Part shown: piece by piece, positions 2,617-33,991 of the stretch | Layout: every line of letters starts with the position of its first letter | Numbering within the stretch: position 1 is the stretch's first letter | Origin: a virus | Virus genome (UHGV): UHGV-1374574 | Strand: one strand, 5' to 3' | DNA length: 45,677 nucleotides | Notes under the pieces: generated by a model | Told to the model about the DNA's origin: nothing | Seen by the model: only the letters and a program-made list of their open reading frames with translations | The model's database searches: none | Program-made: the position numbers and the translations under genes

Positions 2617-2725
2617 AACTACAGGCAAATCATATTTGTGGCTTTTTATGGCAATTCGCATTGACACTATCAGAATTTCGACATATAATCTGTAGTACAA
2701 CAAATCGTATTTTGGAGGGGTGTAA

Positions 2726-3259
2726 ATGGGAAACGAAAGTGTATATGTTAGCGGTAGATTGATAGGTGGTATTGACGGTGTTATAGCCGGGGATAATGTG
2801 AATATTGCATCTAGTGCCACAGAAATGATAATCAGCAACGGCATTATTACTCAAAAAATCAATAACAGTGATGTTCTTGGTGTGAAAATGGTAAATGATG
2901 TTCAGATACAGGAGCAATATGTTTCGAGCGTCGGTGGTGCGATAGCCGGGGGTGTCTTATTTGGTGTTCCTGGTGCCGTAATTGGTGGCAGAGCGAAGAA
3001 AAAACAGATAAAAACAAATGAAACTAGCCTTGTTATTACATATAAAGACAATGAAACGGTGAAGAATATTATCATAAAGCCAACACAGTTCGTAAGTTTC
3101 AAGTTTATGGACCGTTACACACGGCAAATCGAATTAGATCCGGCAACTAAACAGGCCATGAGCAATGAAAACAAAGGGAAAAAGTTCGGCTGCTCACTGA
3201 TATTTGTATTATTGATAATATGTTTTGCGTTATTGGTATTAGGAATTTCTTTACAATAG
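2726..3259 (+). CDS. membrane protein with glycine-zipper helix and C-terminal TM anchor
   Basis: VGGAIAGGVLFGVPGAVIGG glycine zipper; C-terminal FGCSLIFVLLIICFALLVLGISL. Confidence 0.5.
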   Translation: MGNESVYVSGRLIGGIDGVIAGDNVNIASSATEMIISNGIITQKINNSDVLGVKMVNDVQIQEQYVSSVGGAIAGGVLFGVPGAVIGGRAKKKQIKTNETSLVITYKDNETVKNIIIKPTQFVSFKFMDRYTRQIELDPATKQAMSNENKGKKFGCSLIFVLLIICFALLVLGISLQ

Positions 3260-3271
3260 AGCAAATCATAT

Positions 3272-3325
3272 TGACAAAATATCATTTTTCTTATAGAATG
3301 GTATTAGTCGGATAGTAATAAGGAG
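3272..3325 (+). promoter_or_regulatory. promoter (TTGACA-17-TATAGAAT) with downstream TATTAGTCGGATAGTAATA operator-like dyad
   Basis: Near-consensus -35 and -10; dyad shares TATTAGTCG with the two downstream promoters. Confidence 0.45.
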
Positions 3326-3332
3326 TGAGAAA

Positions 3333-3572
3333 ATGGCAAGTAGACCAGAATATACAACAGAATATATCCAAAAGAATCTCGAAAGACTGGAAATTCGATT
3401 CCAGGCAAAGGATGAAATGACAAAAAAGATAGACGAACATTGTATAAAGCATGGTTATGTTAATACAAACGGTCGCTATCCGGGCAAATCGAATAGAACA
3501 GAGTTTATCAAAAAGGCCATTGAAACACAAATTGCTATTGATAATGGTAAATTAAAGGTAATAAAAGAGTAG
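3333..3572 (+). CDS. ribbon-helix-helix family regulator (candidate regulator of downstream promoters)
   Basis: LERLEIRFQAKDEMTKKIDEHC ... RTEFIKKAIETQI RHH-like pattern; lies immediately upstream of operator-bearing promoters. Confidence 0.5.
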   Translation: MASRPEYTTEYIQKNLERLEIRFQAKDEMTKKIDEHCIKHGYVNTNGRYPGKSNRTEFIKKAIETQIAIDNGKLKVIKE

Positions 3573-3598
3573 GTGTAAAAAGCCTACTCTTATTTTTT
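3566..3598 (+). terminator. rho-independent terminator
   Basis: AGAGTAGG / CCTACTCT stem followed by TATTTTTT. Confidence 0.6.
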
Positions 3599-3620
3599 AA
3601 AAAAAGTTGAAAAAAAGGTA

Positions 3621-3649
3621 TTGACTTTATTAGTCGACTATGATAATAT
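3621..3649 (+). promoter_or_regulatory. promoter P1 (TTGACT-17-TGaTAATAT) with TAGTCGACTA palindrome in spacer
   Basis: A-tract UP region, -35 TTGACT, extended -10; perfect 10-bp palindrome 3631-3640. Confidence 0.6.
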
Positions 3650-3654
3650 GTAGA

Positions 3655-4248
3655 CAGTAACACAAAACCCTATATATTGAGGCCTACCAAAAAGCCGGAA
3701 ACGGTGGCGGGTAATAAGTGGATATACATATATAGGTAAAGTGTAGCGGATCGGCGAGAAGTAACGGCCACTCATTAAACGAACTGCACTATAAACACTA
3801 ATTGAGTTAAATAACATTCTGGTATGAAAGAACCGTGAGACTTTCCGGCAAGAGGTAATGCCGTTACTGATTACCCGTTGAGTGAATAGCCGATAAGCAC
3901 TCTTACAATGATTACGGCCTAGTGACTACTACTTATAGTAGGAATCGGTGTTTATGATAGTAACAGGACGATTTCAGCCGATTTAAAACCTGTCTGAAAT
4001 TAAAAAGTGTTCGTAAGGAAAGAACGTAAGACTTCCGTTGAAACTATTGATTATCTAAGGAAGATATAAAAGCCGCATATTTTATATTGGAATTACCGCC
4101 ACGGGTAAAGTGGGGCGCAAGGGGCAGCCAAAAAGTCCATCATAGAAAACTGATTGCAAGCGTGAACGGATGCGGACAAGTAGCGGTTGTAATGGGCGGA
4201 CTATGTAAATTTCCGGGTGGGAGCGTAAAAACTTCCACCCTTTTTTAT
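3655..4248 (+). ncRNA. candidate large structured ncRNA (~600 nt; possibly ROOL/GOLLD-like prophage RNA)
   Basis: ORF-free span between strong promoter and intrinsic terminator 4215-4248 (GGGTGGGAG/CTTCCACCC + TTTTTT); long-range complementarities such as CGGTGGCGGGTAAT(3708) / ATTACCGCCACGGG(4092) and CGGGTAAT(3716) / ATTACCCG(3873). Confidence 0.5.
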
Positions 4249-4253
4249 TTCCA

Positions 4254-4321
4254 GGCAAATCGTTTTAAGGCAAATCACTTTTTGAAAAGCAAATCACTTT
4301 TCAAGGCAAATCGTTTTTCTG
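4254..4321 (+). repeat. 4 tandem copies of GCAAATC(G/A)(T/C)TTTT (~16-bp period)
   Basis: GGCAAATCGTTTTAA / GGCAAATCACTTTTTGAAAA / GCAAATCACTTTTCAAG / GCAAATCGTTTTTCT. Confidence 0.5.
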
Positions 4322-4477
4322 CTACGGGCGTGTATATGGCAAACTGACGAACTGTACCAACGGGACCAAACGGGGCGGATCTATGAACCTTATACCAGTA
4401 CACGAACACAAAAACCAAACTATTTTTTGCATTATATAGGAAGAAACACGATTTTTTAAAAAAAATAAAAAAAACAC

Positions 4478-4506
4478 TTGATTTATTAGTCGACTAATGG
4501 TAAGAT
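4478..4506 (+). promoter_or_regulatory. promoter P2 (TTGATT-17-TAAGAT) with TTAGTCGACTAA palindrome in spacer
   Basis: Same architecture as P1; 12-bp perfect palindrome 4486-4497; long A-tract upstream. Confidence 0.6.
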
Positions 4507-4582
4507 AGACTTATAGGGAACACTTTAGTCTGCTAAAGCGGAATGAAACTACAAAACAATTATAAGAAAGGAAGTAAAAAAT

Positions 4583-4777
4583 ATGGATTATGATTTTAGT
4601 TTAAAAGCATGTATGGAAAGTGTAGAGTTTGAGATTGAAACATTAAAAGCAAATGTATTTGAAGAATTAGGGAAAGCAATTATAAGAGCAGAACAAGATC
4701 CGTTTTTTAATAAGACCATGATTGAAGCATACAAAACATACATCAAAGAACACGATTTAAAATGGAACGATAAATAA
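4583..4777 (+). CDS. hypothetical protein (cassette gene 1)
   Basis: ORF with RBS AAAGGAAG; no recognisable domain; AT-rich by eye. Confidence 0.5.
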   Translation: MDYDFSLKACMESVEFEIETLKANVFEELGKAIIRAEQDPFFNKTMIEAYKTYIKEHDLKWNDK

Positions 4778-4802
4778 TCAAATAAAGAAAGGAAGTAAAA
4801 CA

Positions 4803-5498
4803 ATGAAAAAAAGTATTGAAATTGAAAAAGAAATTAAAAAAGCGTATGCAAAACTTGAAACATTAAAACAGGAAGAAAGCAAAAGAATTGATGCGGTTAT
4901 GGCGTTAGATACATTCCAGGAACGGCAAGAGGCCCGCAAAGCGGCAAAAGATGCAATGATTAAAGCAAGTAAAGAAAGAAGAAAGTTAGAAATTACAATT
5001 AGAATTTTAAAGAATAACGAAAAAGCCGCTTTTATTAGCGAATATTTTCCGCAAGTATTAGAAATTTATAATAGTTACGCCGGGAAGCAATATGGACCTG
5101 TTACGGAAAAAAAGATCCGTGAAGAAATAAAAGAAAAATTAAACATTTTCGCAAGTATTAGCGGTCAAGAAGTAAGACTTTATAAATTAAATAAAGAAGG
5201 CTATTCATACGGCGATACACTTCTTATGGATACAGTATACGAAAACGGCGAAAAAATCAAAATTTTAGTTGATAACAAGATACAGAAAACAACGCCGGAA
5301 AACTTTAGAACATACGATTGTAAACCATACATAGAGGATATAAACGGATATATTAAAAACCTGGATAAAGCGTATGAAAGAGTTTTAGCAGCGGAAAAAG
5401 AAATAAAAGAAGCGTGTTCGATTTTTTGCGGTTTAAGTATTACCGGGATGCGGGAACCATACGCAACAGTACAAAATTTATACAGTGATTATATTTAA
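4803..5498 (+). CDS. hypothetical protein with N-terminal coiled coil (cassette gene 2)
   Basis: 231 aa; K/E-rich heptad-like N-terminus; RBS AAAGGAAG. Confidence 0.55.
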   Translation: MKKSIEIEKEIKKAYAKLETLKQEESKRIDAVMALDTFQERQEARKAAKDAMIKASKERRKLEITIRILKNNEKAAFISEYFPQVLEIYNSYAGKQYGPVTEKKIREEIKEKLNIFASISGQEVRLYKLNKEGYSYGDTLLMDTVYENGEKIKILVDNKIQKTTPENFRTYDCKPYIEDINGYIKNLDKAYERVLAAEKEIKEACSIFCGLSITGMREPYATVQNLYSDYI

Positions 5499-5513
5499 TA
5501 GCGGGGTGAAAAA

Positions 5514-6002
5514 ATGAGTTGTTTAATAGCGGAAAAAGAAACAGTTAGCAAGGTATCAAATTTTATCTCTAGATTTTTAAACCAGGGTTTTAATTCTTTT
5601 GGTTTTGCGCCGACTAAAGCGGTTTTTGATGGTTTTAACGATTGCACTATATGCGGCTTTTATAATTCGGATCTGATTTATAAAAAACTCTATGAATTAA
5701 ATTTTGCCGCTTATAATGGACGCTACCTGGAAGGACAGGAAGAAAAGCCGGAAGAAATAGAAATATTTTATAAAAACCAAAATATAGATATATGGGAAAA
5801 TAGAGTATATAAAAACGGTTTTGAAAATGTGCAACCGTGGCATTTTGAAATATACAAACACATACAATTTTTACATTATCAATTATGTGAAGATGCTACA
5901 CAAGAACACGCAACAAGAAAAGCATTGCAAGAATTAGAAATTATTTTAGCAAGGTTTATTGTTAGCACAACGGCGGAATATAACGCTATACAATGGAGAT
6001 AA
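5514..6002 (+). CDS. hypothetical protein (cassette gene 3)
   Basis: 162 aa; no known motifs. Confidence 0.55.
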   Translation: MSCLIAEKETVSKVSNFISRFLNQGFNSFGFAPTKAVFDGFNDCTICGFYNSDLIYKKLYELNFAAYNGRYLEGQEEKPEEIEIFYKNQNIDIWENRVYKNGFENVQPWHFEIYKHIQFLHYQLCEDATQEHATRKALQELEIILARFIVSTTAEYNAIQWR

Positions 6003-6051
6003 ACAAAAGGCCCGGTATAATTCCGGGCCGCATTATAGAAAGGAAAGGAAA

Positions 6052-6288
6052 ATGAAAAAAAGTATAGTAACGTTATTTGATGCAAAAGCGGGAGAGTTTA
6101 TACAAAAGTCTTTTTATTGTTTATCGGCAAAACAGGCGTTAATTGCTGCCGTGATGCGATACAACGGAAATTTTAATACATGGGAATATCCAGAAAATAT
6201 AGAGGGTATTTATAAATCAAACTGCATAAAGCATAGATTGCTATTTGATATTAACGAAAATTTGATTATGTATAGTCAAGAGGTATAA
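6052..6288 (+). CDS. hypothetical protein (cassette gene 4)
   Basis: ATG 6052 after AAAGGAAAGG; the longer track ORF (5959) overlaps gene 3. Confidence 0.5.
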   Translation: MKKSIVTLFDAKAGEFIQKSFYCLSAKQALIAAVMRYNGNFNTWEYPENIEGIYKSNCIKHRLLFDINENLIMYSQEV

Positions 6289-6316
6289 AAGGAAGGAGCG
6301 TAAAAGGGGTGCAAAA

Positions 6317-6523
6317 GTGTCAAATTTAACGCATTTATTCAAAGTGAATCAAAAAGTATTTTATAAAAATGATGATTTTGATGCAATTAGAAAAATGGTT
6401 CCTTGCATCGTAAAAGCGACTTTCCAGGACCATATTATAATTACGGATATAGAAACAGACACAGATTTATGGATAGAACCGTGCTTTAACTTAGGGAATG
6501 TTTTCCCGGACTATAACTTATAA
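6317..6523 (+). CDS. hypothetical protein (cassette gene 5)
   Basis: 68 aa ORF; RBS AAGGGG. Confidence 0.5.
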   Translation: MSNLTHLFKVNQKVFYKNDDFDAIRKMVPCIVKATFQDHIIITDIETDTDLWIEPCFNLGNVFPDYNL

Positions 6524-6535
6524 AGGGTTTATAAT

Positions 6536-6712
6536 ATGAAATGGTATAATGTAGAATTAACACAAAACGAAAGTAATCTTTTTAAAGCGTTCTTAATGCG
6601 TAACAAGATAAAATTCGAAAGCAGCGGTTGTTATAATTTAGTGCATTTTGAGGTTTACGCAAGTAAAGAACAAGCGAATATGTTAAATACATTTTTAGAG
6701 ACTATTTTTTAA
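6536..6712 (+). CDS. hypothetical small protein (cassette gene 6)
   Basis: 58-aa ORF (below track cut-off) MKWYNVELTQNE...; same orientation and composition. Confidence 0.35.
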   Translation: MKWYNVELTQNESNLFKAFLMRNKIKFESSGCYNLVHFEVYASKEQANMLNTFLETIF

Positions 6713-6846
6713 AGGGGCATACAATGAGACAGAAAAAACCATGGTACACAAAAAGAAGGCGCAAAAGAGGACGGCCCCGGAAGAAATTTTTCTTTTGGCT
6801 ATAGTGCCGGAAAACATGATAAATAAAAGCATAGTAGAAAATAACA

Positions 6847-6891
6847 GAGAGGATCTAAACGGATAAAAACCGGGTGGATCTTCTTTTTTTG
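6847..6891 (+). terminator. putative terminator of cassette operon
   Basis: Imperfect stem GAGAGGATC/GATCTTCTT with large loop, followed by TTTTTTT. Confidence 0.4.
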
Positions 6892-7604
6892 TTTGCGCTG
6901 CCGAAAAGCCGAACAAATAAAGAATAATAAAAGATAAAGCCGGGAACGGGGAAAGGAAGAAACGGTATAATAGCGTATAAAAGCGTATAAGGCCCATATA
7001 GCGACTTTTTGCGTTTAGTGTACTCTAATATACCTACGATAGAAACGGCTGCATATAGTCAAAATAGAACGTTCTGGCAAGGTGTCGAAAAGCCGATAAC
7101 ATAAGGGAAACAAAAGGAAATAGAGAAAGAAAGGATATAGAGATATACTACGGCTTGAAAGATAGGCTTTTTTGTTTGCTATGCTTTTGTACTATCGGCT
7201 TACAGTCTGTTTGGTGGGTGGTGGGTGTGGCATTTTCGGCTATGGGCATTCTAGCGCATGAATAGGGGAAATAGGGGCTATAACGATGGGCATATATACT
7301 ACTATACCTATATAATAATAACGCAAATACGGGCATTTTAGAGCGTTGTACTGTGTGAGAAAGCCTTGGAAAAGCCTTTATTTATACGGTTTTGTGCATT
7401 TTGTACAGTGCAAACAACGTGTACCCTATACATAAGGCACATATTGCACCCCAAAAAAGGGTAAAATTCCCAGTGAATATTTGGAAATGGGGAGGGGGGT
7501 GTCCCGATGCTGACCTGGATTTGAACTTATACCCATCCTTCCCTACAGAATAAAAAACCCACCATAGGGGGCCAAAATATACTTGTATGTCATTTATGAG
7601 GTTA

Positions 7605-7632
7605 TTGACATACATAATAAAAAGGGTATATA
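7605..7632 (+). promoter_or_regulatory. promoter TTGACA-16-TATATA
   Basis: Consensus -35 at 7605-7610; drives RHH gene 7666. Confidence 0.5.
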
Positions 7633-7665
7633 CTACAGGTGATTTTTTGAGAGGGAGGTATATCT

Positions 7666-7947
7666 ATGCGACCAAAGAAAACAGTTGAAATGAAACGAGT
7701 GAGTATCAGACTAGAACCATACCAAGTAGCAACGATAAACGGCATTGCGAAAAAGAACGGAGAAACATTTACAAGTGTGCTTAGACGAATGGTTGATTTT
7801 TCGACCAACAAAGTAAGTGAGGATTGTATAGCGGTGTCGTTAGATAGTGCCGACCATGTGAAGTTGAAAGCACTGGCAAGAAGTAAGGGAAAGTCTGAAA
7901 GCGATTTGGCTGCCGAGATAATCAGTGGTTGCATGAACTTCATGTGA
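7666..7947 (+). CDS. tandem (double) ribbon-helix-helix DNA-binding protein
   Basis: Two consecutive RHH-like units (KRVSIRLEPYQVATINGIAKKNGETFTSVLRRMVD and IAVSLDSADHVKLKALARSKGKSESDLAAEII). Confidence 0.5.
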   Translation: MRPKKTVEMKRVSIRLEPYQVATINGIAKKNGETFTSVLRRMVDFSTNKVSEDCIAVSLDSADHVKLKALARSKGKSESDLAAEIISGCMNFM

Positions 7948-8107
7948 TTTTTTGGTACAGAAAAAGGGCCTTTAAAAATTTTTCGCAGAAAAAAACCGTC
8001 TATAGGGGAAAATTTATGGAAAATCCGTGTATATTTACAATTTAATAATATAGAGTTAAGATATAGATGATGAATTAGTACATTTTTAGAATACTCCTCC
8101 TGGAAAG

Positions 8108-8131
8108 CCGCCTGTAATGGGTGGCTTTTTT
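8108..8131 (+). terminator. intrinsic terminator-like hairpin immediately upstream of terS
   Basis: GCCGCC/GGTGGC stem (one G.U), loop TGTAATG, TTTTTT. Confidence 0.5.
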
Positions 8132-8153
8132 AGGTTTGGAAGAAAGGGGCAAC

Positions 8154-8618
8154 ATGGCAACCAGAAGTAAGTTAAAGAATTATAACGGCCTTACAGATAC
8201 CGAGCAGAGGTTTTGTGATGCCTATATGAAAAATGGTGGTGACGGTGTTGCTGCTATGGAAGAAGCCGGATATTCGCATAAGTCGGCAAAGAGACTTTGG
8301 GCAGATATGTACAAGAAACCCGAAGTACAGAATTACTTGCAGACAGTCACAAAGACGATTGAACGAGAAACGATTGCGACTACGGCAGAGATCCGTGAAT
8401 TTTTGACATCTGTTATGAGAAACGAAGCAGAAATGACAGAATACATGAACCGTTTTATCGGTGGTGGCGAACAGGAAATCACACCAGTAGTCAGAAAGCC
8501 GAATAACCGGGAGAAGTTAGATGCTGCCGATAAACTTTTGAAGATTAGCGGTGCATACAACAAAGATGTTAATACGAATATTATTCCTATTGTCATTCAA
8601 AACGACTTAGGAAAATAG
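8154..8618 (+). CDS. terS: terminase small subunit
   Basis: LTDTEQRFCDAYMKNGG...AAMEEAGYSHKSAKRLWADMYKKPEVQNYL matches Firmicutes phage TerS HTH pattern; start moved to ATG 8154 (RBS GAAAGGGG) because track start 8121 lies in the terminator. Confidence 0.75.
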   Translation: MATRSKLKNYNGLTDTEQRFCDAYMKNGGDGVAAMEEAGYSHKSAKRLWADMYKKPEVQNYLQTVTKTIERETIATTAEIREFLTSVMRNEAEMTEYMNRFIGGGEQEITPVVRKPNNREKLDAADKLLKISGAYNKDVNTNIIPIVIQNDLGK

Positions 8619-12868: not shown

Positions 12869-13056
12869 GTTGCTACAAAACACTAAAGGATAAGGAACGT
12901 GGGGGTATGGCACTTTGCAAAAATGAGCAACTAAAAGCAGTACACACTTCGTCCGGCGCAATGACTTGGATAAGCGTGTGTAAGAAAACAAGAAAGCAAT
13001 GTAGTATGTGTAAAAAGATAAAGGCAGAATCAAAATAGGTTCTGTCTTTTTTTATT

Positions 13057-13128
13057 GGCGGGATAGAGCAGTGGTAACTCGCTAGGCTCATAACCTAGAA
13101 ATCGTTGGTTCAAATCCAACTCCCGCAA
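13057..13128 (+). tRNA. tRNA-Met (anticodon CAT; could be Ile2/lysidine type)
   Basis: Cloverleaf: acceptor GGCGGGA/TCCCGCA, anticodon stem CTAGG/CCTAG with loop CTCATAA, T-arm GTTGG-TTCAAAT-CCAAC; G1.A72 mismatch noted. Confidence 0.7.
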
Positions 13129-13214
13129 TTCGTTGGTGAACGTAAAACACAAAAAACAATTTCAAGTTCGTGGACTGAACCACGTTAAACAATGTTTGAA
13201 GGGAGCAAAAAGAA

Positions 13215-32063: not shown

Positions 32064-33596
32064 TTATTTTCTCGGCATTTTTGGATAGATTTTAATTGTG
32101 AAATTGTGCATACCATCTTCACTTTTCCAAAACTCCACTTTTTCGAGGACTTCTTTAAATAACAGATTGCGTCCGACAGTGTCTATATCATCGTACATAT
32201 CGAAAAGCCGTTCAACTTTTGGTGCGAATGATTCATTGTCGGTTGCAAATGTTTTTTCGTTCTCTATTAGTTCTTTCGTGCTGACAATATCAGCGTCAAT
32301 CTTCTTTTTTCGAGCGAAAAGCGTTTCCGACCTCTTATTGTACATATCAAGTGAATAAACACCTTTTTCGAGTAAATCACAAAGAGAATCAATCTGGCCG
32401 TCCACGGTAGTTAATTCATCTTTGAGAGCAGCGAGAGTAGATTCGTACAACGGTAATTGTGATTCTCTAACAAGCGGAACACTTTCTACAGTGTAATCTG
32501 CGTACCATTCTTTTAGAGCATCAAGTACACGTTCTACAACTAAGTGGTGTCTGGCCTGTTTATTACCACAGTTATAACGGCACTTTAAATAACCCGGATA
32601 TTTCTTGTCACGGGATGTATATATCATGGCTTTTCCACAACAACCACATTTCATAATTCCGGCAAGTTCATTTTTTAAATCTTTATTATCGTTGCAACCT
32701 GTTTTTGTGTTCGAAAGTCTGATAGATTGCACTTTATAATATTGTTCTTCTGTAATAAGCGGTTCGTGAATACCGTCTACAATTTCTATTTTCGATTTTT
32801 CGTTACGTTTTACTTTCTTAGTTTCCACACCATCTGTTAATATTCTTTGTGTCGATTTGATACCACGCACAACTTTACCAATATAGTGAGGATTCTGTAA
32901 TGCACGTTTGATAACTGAACCAGTCCACAAGGAACCGTGTCGAGTTGGAACACCGAGTTTGTTTAACTTATCGGCAATAGTATTTACTCCAATACCTTGT
33001 TCTGCCATATCGTACATCATGCGTAAATACGGTGCTTCTTGTTCGTTTGGTGTCAGTGTATATCCTTTGCCTTTTTGAACTTTCATTCTGTTATATCCAT
33101 ACGGAGCAACGGAAGGTATATACAATCCCTGGTTGAAAGATTTCACTCTGCCATCAATAAGACGTTTCTTAATACTGTTATACTCTATGCGAGCAAAGAA
33201 AAGTTTCATTTCAAAGAATTGTGAATCAGACGGATCGCAAGGGTTGTAAATCTTATCTGGTGTAACAATGTTTACTTTCATGTAGAAAACCGTACTGAAA
33301 ATTCTACCCTGGTCCGACATATTACCACGACTCAAACGGTCAACATCATATACAAGTAAATTATCTACTTCCCCCTGTTCCATCAATCTAAGGACTTTTT
33401 GTATTTCTGGTCGTGCAACGATGGTGTCACCAGAAACGATTTCACGATAGATGTGGTCCTCTGTTACTGGCATATTCAATCGCTTAGACAATTCCATTAA
33501 AGCATTGTAATGTCTAGTGAGTGTTTCGCCTTGCCCACTTTGTTCCGCTTCTATATCTTCACGGCTTTTTCTTAGATACATCACATTGATTCCCAT
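32064..33596 (-). CDS. large serine recombinase (integrase)
   Basis: N-terminal resolvase motifs YLRKSRED, VYDVDRLSR; recombinase domain; zinc ribbon CGCCGKAMIY...CRYNCGNK; coiled coil. Confidence 0.85.
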   Translation of the reverse strand: MGINVMYLRKSREDIEAEQSGQGETLTRHYNALMELSKRLNMPVTEDHIYREIVSGDTIVARPEIQKVLRLMEQGEVDNLLVYDVDRLSRGNMSDQGRIFSTVFYMKVNIVTPDKIYNPCDPSDSQFFEMKLFFARIEYNSIKKRLIDGRVKSFNQGLYIPSVAPYGYNRMKVQKGKGYTLTPNEQEAPYLRMMYDMAEQGIGVNTIADKLNKLGVPTRHGSLWTGSVIKRALQNPHYIGKVVRGIKSTQRILTDGVETKKVKRNEKSKIEIVDGIHEPLITEEQYYKVQSIRLSNTKTGCNDNKDLKNELAGIMKCGCCGKAMIYTSRDKKYPGYLKCRYNCGNKQARHHLVVERVLDALKEWYADYTVESVPLVRESQLPLYESTLAALKDELTTVDGQIDSLCDLLEKGVYSLDMYNKRSETLFARKKKIDADIVSTKELIENEKTFATDNESFAPKVERLFDMYDDIDTVGRNLLFKEVLEKVEFWKSEDGMHNFTIKIYPKMPRK

Positions 33597-33991
33597 TATT
33601 TACCCCCATTGTTTAAAAACTGCATATAAGATAAAAGTCTTTCATAATTCTTTGCGTCCATCTGTGCTAATTCGATTAAAATTTCTTCGCCACATTCAGA
33701 TGTAATTAAATATTGAACAGTTTCGTTCTGTACTGGTGTTAATGAGTATTCTTCAACTAAACAGGATTTTGTTGTATTGAAAAATTCTGCCATTTTCTCA
33801 ATCTTATCAATTCTAGGGTAATATTCACCACGATACCACCCGGCAAATGTAGTAACAGGAACACCGAGTTCCTTTGCAATCATTTCTTTTGTATATCCTT
33901 TATCTTCCCACATTGCAATGTATTTATTTAAGTTCTTAGCAAAAGTCTGTTTGTTACCATAATTACTAATAGCAATAGTCATAATACACAC
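33596..33991 (-). CDS. XRE-family HTH repressor (CI-like)
   Basis: HTH FAKNLNKYIAMWEDKGYTKEMIAKELGVPVTTFAGW; divergent from cro; stop overlaps integrase start (TAATG). Confidence 0.7.
   Translation of the reverse strand: MCIMTIAISNYGNKQTFAKNLNKYIAMWEDKGYTKEMIAKELGVPVTTFAGWYRGEYYPRIDKIEKMAEFFNTTKSCLVEEYSLTPVQNETVQYLITSECGEEILIELAQMDAKNYERLLSYMQFLNNGGK

Follow-up and report, generated by a model that had tools for sequence, protein, structure and literature searches.

Moron-type hotspots are where phages store genes used against bacterial immunity and host physiology, and, to our knowledge, few anti-defence or host-takeover factors are known in gut Firmicutes. Phage morons of the Hendrix type and hyper-variability hotspots are described types of locus; the hotspots are catalogued by iLund4u (bioRxiv 10.1101/2024.10.15.618418), and lysogeny transcriptomics has been reviewed (PMC7067206). 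Another described type of locus is controlled by a small repressor: Aca14, a ribbon-helix-helix (RHH) protein, has been shown experimentally to repress its own and a neighbouring anti-defence operon via inverted repeats over the promoter (PMC13551039), and repression of the Aca type is widespread among anti-CRISPR operons (PMC9410906). Here we analyse a cassette of six open reading frames (ORF1-ORF6) at positions 4478-6891 of the UHGV virus genome UHGV-1374574, a stretch of 45,677 nucleotides (nt) that is referred to throughout as the window.

A preliminary description of this region had taken the cassette for an accessory moron island and had further proposed that, together with a candidate non-coding RNA (ncRNA) lying upstream, it forms an RNA-plus-protein system. 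Our comparison bears out the first proposal, as the cassette has its own promoter, operator and terminator, a deviant base composition and a content that differs between phages with matching flanks. The second does not hold up, as the ncRNA stays 97-98% identical while the cargo is swapped, and the cargo families occur without the ncRNA. On balance, we favour the view that the region is a repressor-gated, hypervariable accessory-gene slot, that is, a moron-type diversity hotspot, of a temperate phage of gut Firmicutes. The anatomy of the slot and the mosaic nature of its cargo can be stated with considerable confidence. That the cargo consists of early counter-defence or host-takeover factors is a tentative guess by analogy.

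Frame, operator and exchangeable cargo

Six metagenomic sequences closely related to this region (L013, L014, L016, L029, L032 and L033) were recovered via homologues of ORF2 and via exact-word searches with the ncRNA. Common to the relatives is a frame made up of the gene for a 79-amino-acid (aa) RHH-like protein (RHH79), promoter P1, the ncRNA and its terminator, two to four GGCAAATC repeats, a variable spacer and promoter P2 with its palindrome, and the flanks match at 85-98% between phages of differing cassette content. The cargo downstream of P2 varies while this frame is conserved. The window carries ORF1-2-3-4-5-6; with other genes denoted by their length in aa, L013 carries 67aa-ORF2-ORF3-111-72-47-ORF6, L014 carries 65aa-ORF2-ORF3-58-111, L016 a DUF1419 protein-ORF2-173aa-54aa, L029 187aa-46-47-ORF6 and L032 185aa-ORF6, and L033, the cargo of which is incomplete, reads 67-87-54 as far as it goes. 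Across these seven sequences, one phage has, between the same flanks, genes that its close relatives lack or have replaced, which is what marks a moron hotspot. The cargoes counted across the relatives comprise at least 15 small proteins unrelated to one another, ORF2 among them, and none of these has a fold or family that is known.

The position of ORF1 is occupied by unrelated genes of 67 aa in L013, 65 aa in L014 and about 162 aa in L016, other genes stand in place of ORF4 in L013 and L014, and ORF1, ORF4 and ORF5 are private to this phage. A 111-aa gene (b) is common to the cargoes of L013 (a-2-3-b-c-d-6) and L014 (e-2-3-f-b). ORF6, homologues of which end the cargo in L013, L029 and L032, is the sole cargo gene common to most relatives. 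ORF2 and ORF3 form a sub-module bounded by a conserved GC-rich hairpin, GGCCCGG-N7-CCGGGCC (6009-6029, + strand), which has no U-tract on that strand; the flank at this hairpin is 88-94% conserved in L013 and L014, and similarity is gone immediately after it. A fixed conserved partner for ORF2 was considered and rejected, as the next gene varies (ORF3, the L016 173-aa gene L016_173, or genes of 185-188 aa) and these genes have no detectable similarity to one another. In the mechanism that we propose, the genes between P2 and the terminator would be exchanged piecemeal by recombination, and their source would be a circulating pool of AT-rich, small, soluble, uncharacterized genes.

The cassette is preceded by P2 (TTGATT-17-TAAGAT, 4478-4506, + strand), a promoter of the sigma-70 type with its -35 hexamer at 4478-4483 and its -10 hexamer at 4501-4506. 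Its spacer holds the operator ATTAGTCGACTAAT (4485-4498), a 14-base-pair (bp) perfect palindrome that shows no change in any of the seven related sequences, whereas identity in its surroundings drops to 62-85%. The window contains exactly two copies of the decamer TAGTCGACTA, each within the 17-nt spacer of a sigma-70-type promoter, namely at 4487 in P2 and at 3631-3640 in P1 (TTGACT-17-TAATAT, with TG; 3621-3649, + strand), the predicted promoter of the ncRNA. A degenerate operator copy with one mismatch, TAGTCGGATA (3305-3314, + strand), lies downstream of the RHH79 promoter, which a promoter scan placed at 3271-3299 (TTGACA-17-TAGAAT, + strand), and an operator-like site is found at the same place in L013, L014 and L029. 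All three operator sites are kept in the relatives, in surroundings of 62-90% identity. At its other end the transcription unit closes with an intrinsic-terminator-like hairpin and U-run (6846-6893, + strand), in which a 12-bp stem with an inner 3-bp stem (6846-6886) precedes the U-run (z = -2.8 for the 201-nt fold of 6700-6900). The earlier view that an operator-controlled promoter and a terminator-like hairpin bracket the cassette is therefore upheld at the level of sequence, as is the co-regulation of cassette and ncRNA, since the same invariant palindrome lies in the spacers of P1 and P2.

RHH79 (3333-3572, + strand) is the candidate repressor. Its gene always adjoins the three operator sites, and the protein is 85-95% identical in L013, L014 and L029, with a dN/dS of about 0.2; in IMG/VR it has no relatives beyond L029. 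Its domain matches are weak (Pfam RHH_1, E=0.037, and RHH_8, E=0.071; NCBIfam aCcr1, E=8e-4). We infer from this arrangement that RHH79 binds the shared palindrome. Because the RHH-like protein would bind the palindrome in both P1 and P2, an early burst followed by shut-off may be envisaged: RHH79 would repress itself weakly and P1 and P2 strongly, so that DNA entering a repressor-free cell would give a burst of ncRNA and cargo, which repressor accumulation would then shut off. Within the cell, each cargo protein would work on its own in counter-defence or host takeover.

RHH79 is one of three small repressor-like genes, each with its own promoter, that are scattered across 6 kb just ahead of the packaging genes (2148-2333, 3333-3572 and 7666-7947). 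Two of them match PHROG 876 or Arc-like repressor families, and the third has the sub-threshold RHH matches; three small regulators just before the packaging genes are unusually dense for this part of a phage genome. In addition, four direct repeats of the form GGCAAATC(G/A)(T/C)TTTT (4254-4318, + strand) lie between the ncRNA terminator and P2, and every relative has its own set of them at this place. The repeat motif RGCAAATCR has 8 matches in the window against 2.7 expected, a number reached in none of 100 shuffles, and single RGCAAATCR(Y)TTTT copies lie upstream of the promoters of a PH_gly_zipper gene (2624-2637) and of the RHH79 gene (3260-3268). These repeats are probably the site of a second regulator.

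Cargo proteins and their distribution

The cassette had been described as six co-oriented ORFs with good ribosome-binding sites (RBSs). All six are present on the + strand; the fourth, given as 79 aa, has 78. They are ORF1 (4583-4777, 64 aa, acidic with a pI of 4.7), ORF2 (4803-5498, 231 aa), ORF3 (5514-6002, 162 aa, helical), ORF4 (6052-6288), ORF5 (6317-6523, 68 aa, with a GTG start) and ORF6 (6536-6712, 58 aa), which recurs as the final gene of the cargo. All are preceded at 5-9 nt by a purine-rich RBS (AAAGGAAG, AAAGGAAG, GGGGTG, AAGGAAAGGA, GGGGTG and AAGGG, respectively), and no membrane segment is predicted in any of the six proteins. ORF2 and ORF3 are real genes under purifying selection, with a dN/dS against three relatives of 0.14-0.24. 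Both ORF1 and ORF4 are singletons. Of the six gene calls, that of ORF5 is the least secure; its exact sequence is not in the 15-billion-protein collection, it has no relatives, and the gene caller of the source record skipped it. The AT-richness of the cassette, first judged by eye, is confirmed by computation: its GC content is 31.9% against a window mean of 38.9%, which is 3.7 standard deviations under the mean, only 0.5% of equally long windows (2414 nt) have a GC content this low, and the global minimum falls within the cassette. The GC content at third codon positions is 23-32% in the cassette genes versus about 39-44% in sampled packaging and head genes.

The initial impression that the six proteins lack recognizable domains agrees with every library searched. 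None of them has a meaningful match in Pfam, PADLOC or NCBIfam, and in PHROGs only ORF3 has one, to PHROG 35696 (unknown function). Neither tblastn with each of the six nor blastn with positions 3500-8200 found a match among 50,697 GenBank phage genomes, ORF2 has no match among the PLSDB plasmids, and profile searches of PDB sequences with the ORF2 and ORF3 families returned nothing. No RNA-binding or nuclease domain was detected in the cassette proteins (Pfam, PHROGs, NCBIfam), and neither the six ORFs nor the alternative cargo genes of the relatives match anti-defence families in Pfam or PHROGs. Among 5027 PADLOC models, no known defence-system protein was matched beyond a single weak partial match of ORF2 to the candidate PDC-M02B (E=4e-4). 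This candidate was rejected, as the match was not reproduced in the other 51 family members scanned; the 52 ORF2-family members gave only scattered single coiled-coil matches in the same libraries. In sum, no library or fold search gave a handle on cargo function.

ORF2 belongs to a large, unannotated gut-metagenome family of proteins of about 230 aa. A word-indexed search found just 10 proteins and made ORF2 look rare; a full HMMER profile search gave 615 cluster representatives with a cut-off of E<=1e-3 and still 496 with one of E<=1e-10. Almost all are 210-250 aa long, and a few (P0026, P0075, P0077 and P0157) have N-terminal extensions of 40-100 aa. The exact ORF2 protein occurs in one metagenome contig of the European Nucleotide Archive (ENA), and a scan of species-representative genomes for ORF2 yielded one metagenome-assembled genome only. 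The coiled coil noted at the outset in the 231-aa protein has its counterpart in the AlphaFold2 model (pLDDT 85), in which a helical hairpin (residues 4-91) is followed by a small alpha/beta domain and a C-terminal helix (180-211). A Foldseek search of BFVD yielded uncharacterized metagenomic Siphoviridae proteins only. Members of the ORF2 family are common in human-gut metagenomes, the structure model is a confident one, and neither PHROGs, Pfam nor PDB offers a counterpart. ORF3 proteins have an invariant N-terminal MSC and the motifs AYNGRY and YQ..EDAT, and ORF6 is 49-95% identical in aa across several phages.

By nhmmer and blastn, the ncRNA is missing from L002-L012, L017-L028 and L035-L046, where members of the ORF2, ORF3 and ORF6 families are nevertheless found. 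Homologues of ORF2 lie between replication and packaging genes, before the terminase gene, in L002 and L018-L020, beside an integrase gene in L008, L030 and L031, and inside long runs of small ORFs on contigs of 145-184 kb. In one such run, on the 184-kb contig L004, the ORF2 homologue (P0006) is accompanied by AcrIC5-, HicA-, DarA_C- and LPD15-like genes. A homologue of ORF3 with 51% identity stands beside a helix-turn-helix (HTH) gene in a different integrative element (L012), and the ORF6 family is found in ten IMG/VR contigs that share no other gene with the window. Alternative cargo genes of the close relatives also reappear near ORF2 homologues elsewhere, such as L016_173 in L020 (66% identity) and the 65-aa gene of L014 (L014_65) in L004 and L025. 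DUF8033 proteins, on which a literature search turned up no paper, adjoin ORF2 homologues in L002 and L030 and ORF6 in L045. Because cargo families travel alone and cargo genes reappear elsewhere, they would seem to form a shared pool of mobile accessory genes, not a fixed system.

The different phage represented by L045 and L046 carries an ORF6 copy of 95% identity, and the ncRNA is absent there. In L045 (8560-10560, and also in L046) this copy is part of an opposite-strand cassette, DUF8033-111-226-ORF6-76, with 31.4% versus 39.5% GC, its own promoter, a different repeated palindrome (TACACAAAAACGTGTA) and the same AAGAAAGGAAGTAAAA ribosome-binding context. Between ORF6 and the terminator, the window has a 26-codon ORF (6725-6805, + strand) for a strongly basic peptide, MRQKKPWYTKRRRKRGRPRKKFFFWL, with a good RBS (AAAGGGG, 7 nt); at the matching position and RBS context L045 has a 32-aa hydrophobic peptide instead.

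The neighbouring RNA, the phage and rival explanations

The candidate ncRNA is about 590 nt long (3656-4245, + strand), starting after P1 and ending with an intrinsic terminator (4215-4240). The stretch has no ORF under any genetic code, every frame being full of all three stop codons, and nothing credible was found in Rfam, either at gathering thresholds or at E<=10. It is 97-98% identical in five relatives, a divergence of 2-3% that compares with a dS of 0.4-0.5 in the neighbouring genes, which points to very strong sequence constraint. RNAalifold finds three pairs with compensatory double changes, and the hairpin at about 3820-3840 has, by eye, U.G, C-G, U-A and C-G+A-U variants; the z-score of the minimum free energy is -0.24, so that predicted stability is no better than that of shuffles. 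An insertion hotspot follows the hairpin ACTACTTATAGTAG; the insert measures 95 nt in the window (3944-4038), L029 and L032 have one of about 150 nt, and L013 and L014 have none. By nhmmer the ncRNA is confined to this small clade.

The window holds nearly the whole genome (45.7 kb) of a temperate tailed phage, siphovirus-like and of gut Firmicutes. A serine integrase gene and a CI-like repressor gene lie on the minus strand (32064-33991), followed by genes for a Cro-like protein, RecT, a PDDEXK nuclease, SSB and a G39P-type loader; across the end of the window to its start, the dUTPase gene leads to the studied region and then to terS, terL, an SPP1-type portal, a MuF-like protein, and structural and lysis genes. 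The cassette hence lies between replication genes (RecT, PDDEXK nuclease, SSB, G39P loader and dUTPase) and terS/terL. As the closest named relative of a cargo protein comes from Holdemanella biformis, the host is probably a gut Erysipelotrichaceae-like Firmicute. Right after the dUTPase gene, Rfam calls a tRNA (1667-1731, + strand; 49.6 bits, above the gathering score) for which ARAGORN makes no call, and a clear tRNA-Met lies within the head-gene module (13056-13129). The window also encodes a 177-aa protein (2661-3259, + strand) that combines a PH_gly_zipper domain with a membrane helix at its C-terminus; its gene has a perfect consensus promoter (TTGACA-17-TATAAT, 2661-2689), and the protein may, apart from the cassette, act in superinfection exclusion or abortive infection. 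Another long non-coding region, of about 770 nt and 39.5% GC (6894-7665), runs from the cassette terminator to an Arc-like 93-aa gene and terS. An imperfect 41-nt direct repeat lies within it (6899-6939 and 7083-7123). It has no ORF, whichever genetic code is applied (all frames being full of all three stop codons), and nothing credible in Rfam at gathering thresholds or at E<=10, and no relative spanning it was recovered. This stretch could be a packaging (cos/pac) site or another RNA.

The proposal that the cassette and the ncRNA form one undescribed system, in which at least one protein binds, processes or depends on the RNA, draws on the invariant operator common to P1 and P2, on the strong constraint on the ncRNA and on its position directly upstream of P2 in all six relatives that cover both. 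We consider it highly improbable. In L029 and L032 the ncRNA persists at about 97% identity next to a complete cargo that includes neither ORF2 nor ORF3, and ORF1, ORF4 and ORF5 are unique to this phage. The families of ORF2 (more than 600 cluster representatives), ORF3 and ORF6 occur in phages with no trace of the ncRNA by nhmmer and blastn, as the 95% identical ORF6 of L045 illustrates for the commonest shared cargo gene, and the cassette proteins have no detected RNA-binding or nuclease domain. Adjacency to the ncRNA, which the preliminary description had suggested as a check, is conserved for the slot, defined by P2, and fails for the individual proteins; the linkage would thus belong to the slot and the upstream RHH-like gene, and to no particular protein. 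Because the frame is conserved while the cargo varies, and because the families occur alone without the ncRNA, the cassette is better seen as a moron-like hotspot that appears to be co-regulated with the ncRNA through a shared operator, yet is functionally not tied to it. The idea of one machine was accordingly removed as unsupported.

Two other explanations concern the role of the cargo. Transcription from the prophage, with the cassette protecting the lysogen by superinfection exclusion, abortive infection or another defence, would suit a temperate phage with a serine integrase and CI-like and Cro-like genes; the autonomous promoter, terminator and deviant GC content are the textbook signature of a lysogenic-conversion moron, the gene for the neighbouring PH_gly_zipper membrane protein has a consensus promoter to itself and resembles an exclusion gene, and homologues of ORF2 adjoin integrase genes in three contigs. 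We nevertheless think lysogenic conversion unlikely, as the 5027 PADLOC models gave only one weak match in 1 of 52 family members, the proteins are small and soluble and have no enzymatic or membrane domains, unlike most defence effectors, and the palindrome in the promoter spacer near a repressor gene argues for repression over constitutive expression. The position between replication genes and terS/terL, shared by the ORF2 homologues of L002 and L018-L020, together with purifying selection on ORF2 and ORF3, would instead fit ordinary middle or late-early lytic genes that help in the late-transcription switch, packaging or replication and are too divergent to recognize. However, close relatives with the same backbone (L029 and L032) wholly lack ORF2 and ORF3, and a core function would not be dispensable inside one clade; ORF2 homologues also lie near integrases and in small-ORF arrays on the 145-184 kb contigs, ORF2 has no PHROG, and none of the six occurs in any GenBank phage. 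This explanation is in our view quite unlikely.

Several observations weigh against the repressor-gated accessory slot that we favour. No cargo protein matches a known anti-defence, defence or takeover family or fold, so the functional part of the reading leans on context and analogy. ORF2 recurs just before packaging genes in five phage lineages, a position that may indicate that it serves the lytic programme and not conflict with the host. The hexamers of P2 are weaker in the window than in L013, L014, L016, L029, L032 and L033, where they are nearer to consensus (TTGACT/TATAAT). The RHH assignment of RHH79 falls short of curated thresholds, and the 61-aa (2148-2333) or the 93-aa (7666-7947) repressor-like protein could bind the palindrome in its place. 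Finally, the comparison set consists of metagenomic contigs throughout, several of them short, with the cargo of L033 incomplete.

The slot reading may nonetheless be of practical use, as the locus is clearly bounded and repressor-gated and its cargoes can be listed, which offers a compact list of candidates to screen for anti-defence and host takeover in gut Firmicutes. Worth keeping are the regulatory frame, the list of alternative cargoes, the large dark ORF2 family and, separately, the constrained ncRNA, which merits study alone or jointly with the RHH-like gene. It is a long shot that RHH79, the constrained ncRNA and the swappable cargo make up a new type of counter-defence locus, in which an Aca14-like repressor times an immediate-early RNA effector and rotating new protein inhibitors; the RNA may then serve, for instance, as a sponge or decoy that occupies an immune sensor of the host, and the inhibitors may include the ORF2 family.

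Comparison with described systems

Among the described systems, the clusters of small anti-defence-type ORFs on large mobile elements, as seen in L004, resemble this locus in their long co-oriented runs of small ORFs, and the L004 cluster holds members of the ORF2 family and of the 65-aa cargo-gene family of L014. However, L004 is a contig of unassigned type, and the association is one of shared neighbourhood only.

With Aca14-regulated operons the locus shares a small RHH-like gene next to strong promoters, one conserved inverted repeat within the promoter, the presence of that repeat at the promoter of the regulator itself and of two adjacent units, and a variable cargo of small proteins downstream. 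In contrast to those operons, the cargo here contains no known anti-CRISPR or anti-defence protein, the regulator lies upstream in its own unit rather than as the last gene of the operon, and one of the regulated units is an ncRNA. Because the cargo lacks an anti-defence gene, the RHH call is sub-threshold and the regulator stands upstream in its own unit, we take the likeness to Aca operons as one of how the locus may work, with binding and repression by RHH79 as the presumed common element, and not as one of membership.

The closest likeness is to morons and hyper-variability hotspots. The classical definition of a moron includes expression from the prophage, whereas the operator here argues for repression, and what flanks the slot on its 5' side is no protein gene but an ncRNA of unusual conservation. 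In other respects the locus has the features of such hotspots: extra genes that lie between conserved flanks, have a promoter and a terminator of their own and deviate in base composition, polymorphism by presence, absence and replacement in close relatives, and a cargo of unknown function carried as one transcription unit.

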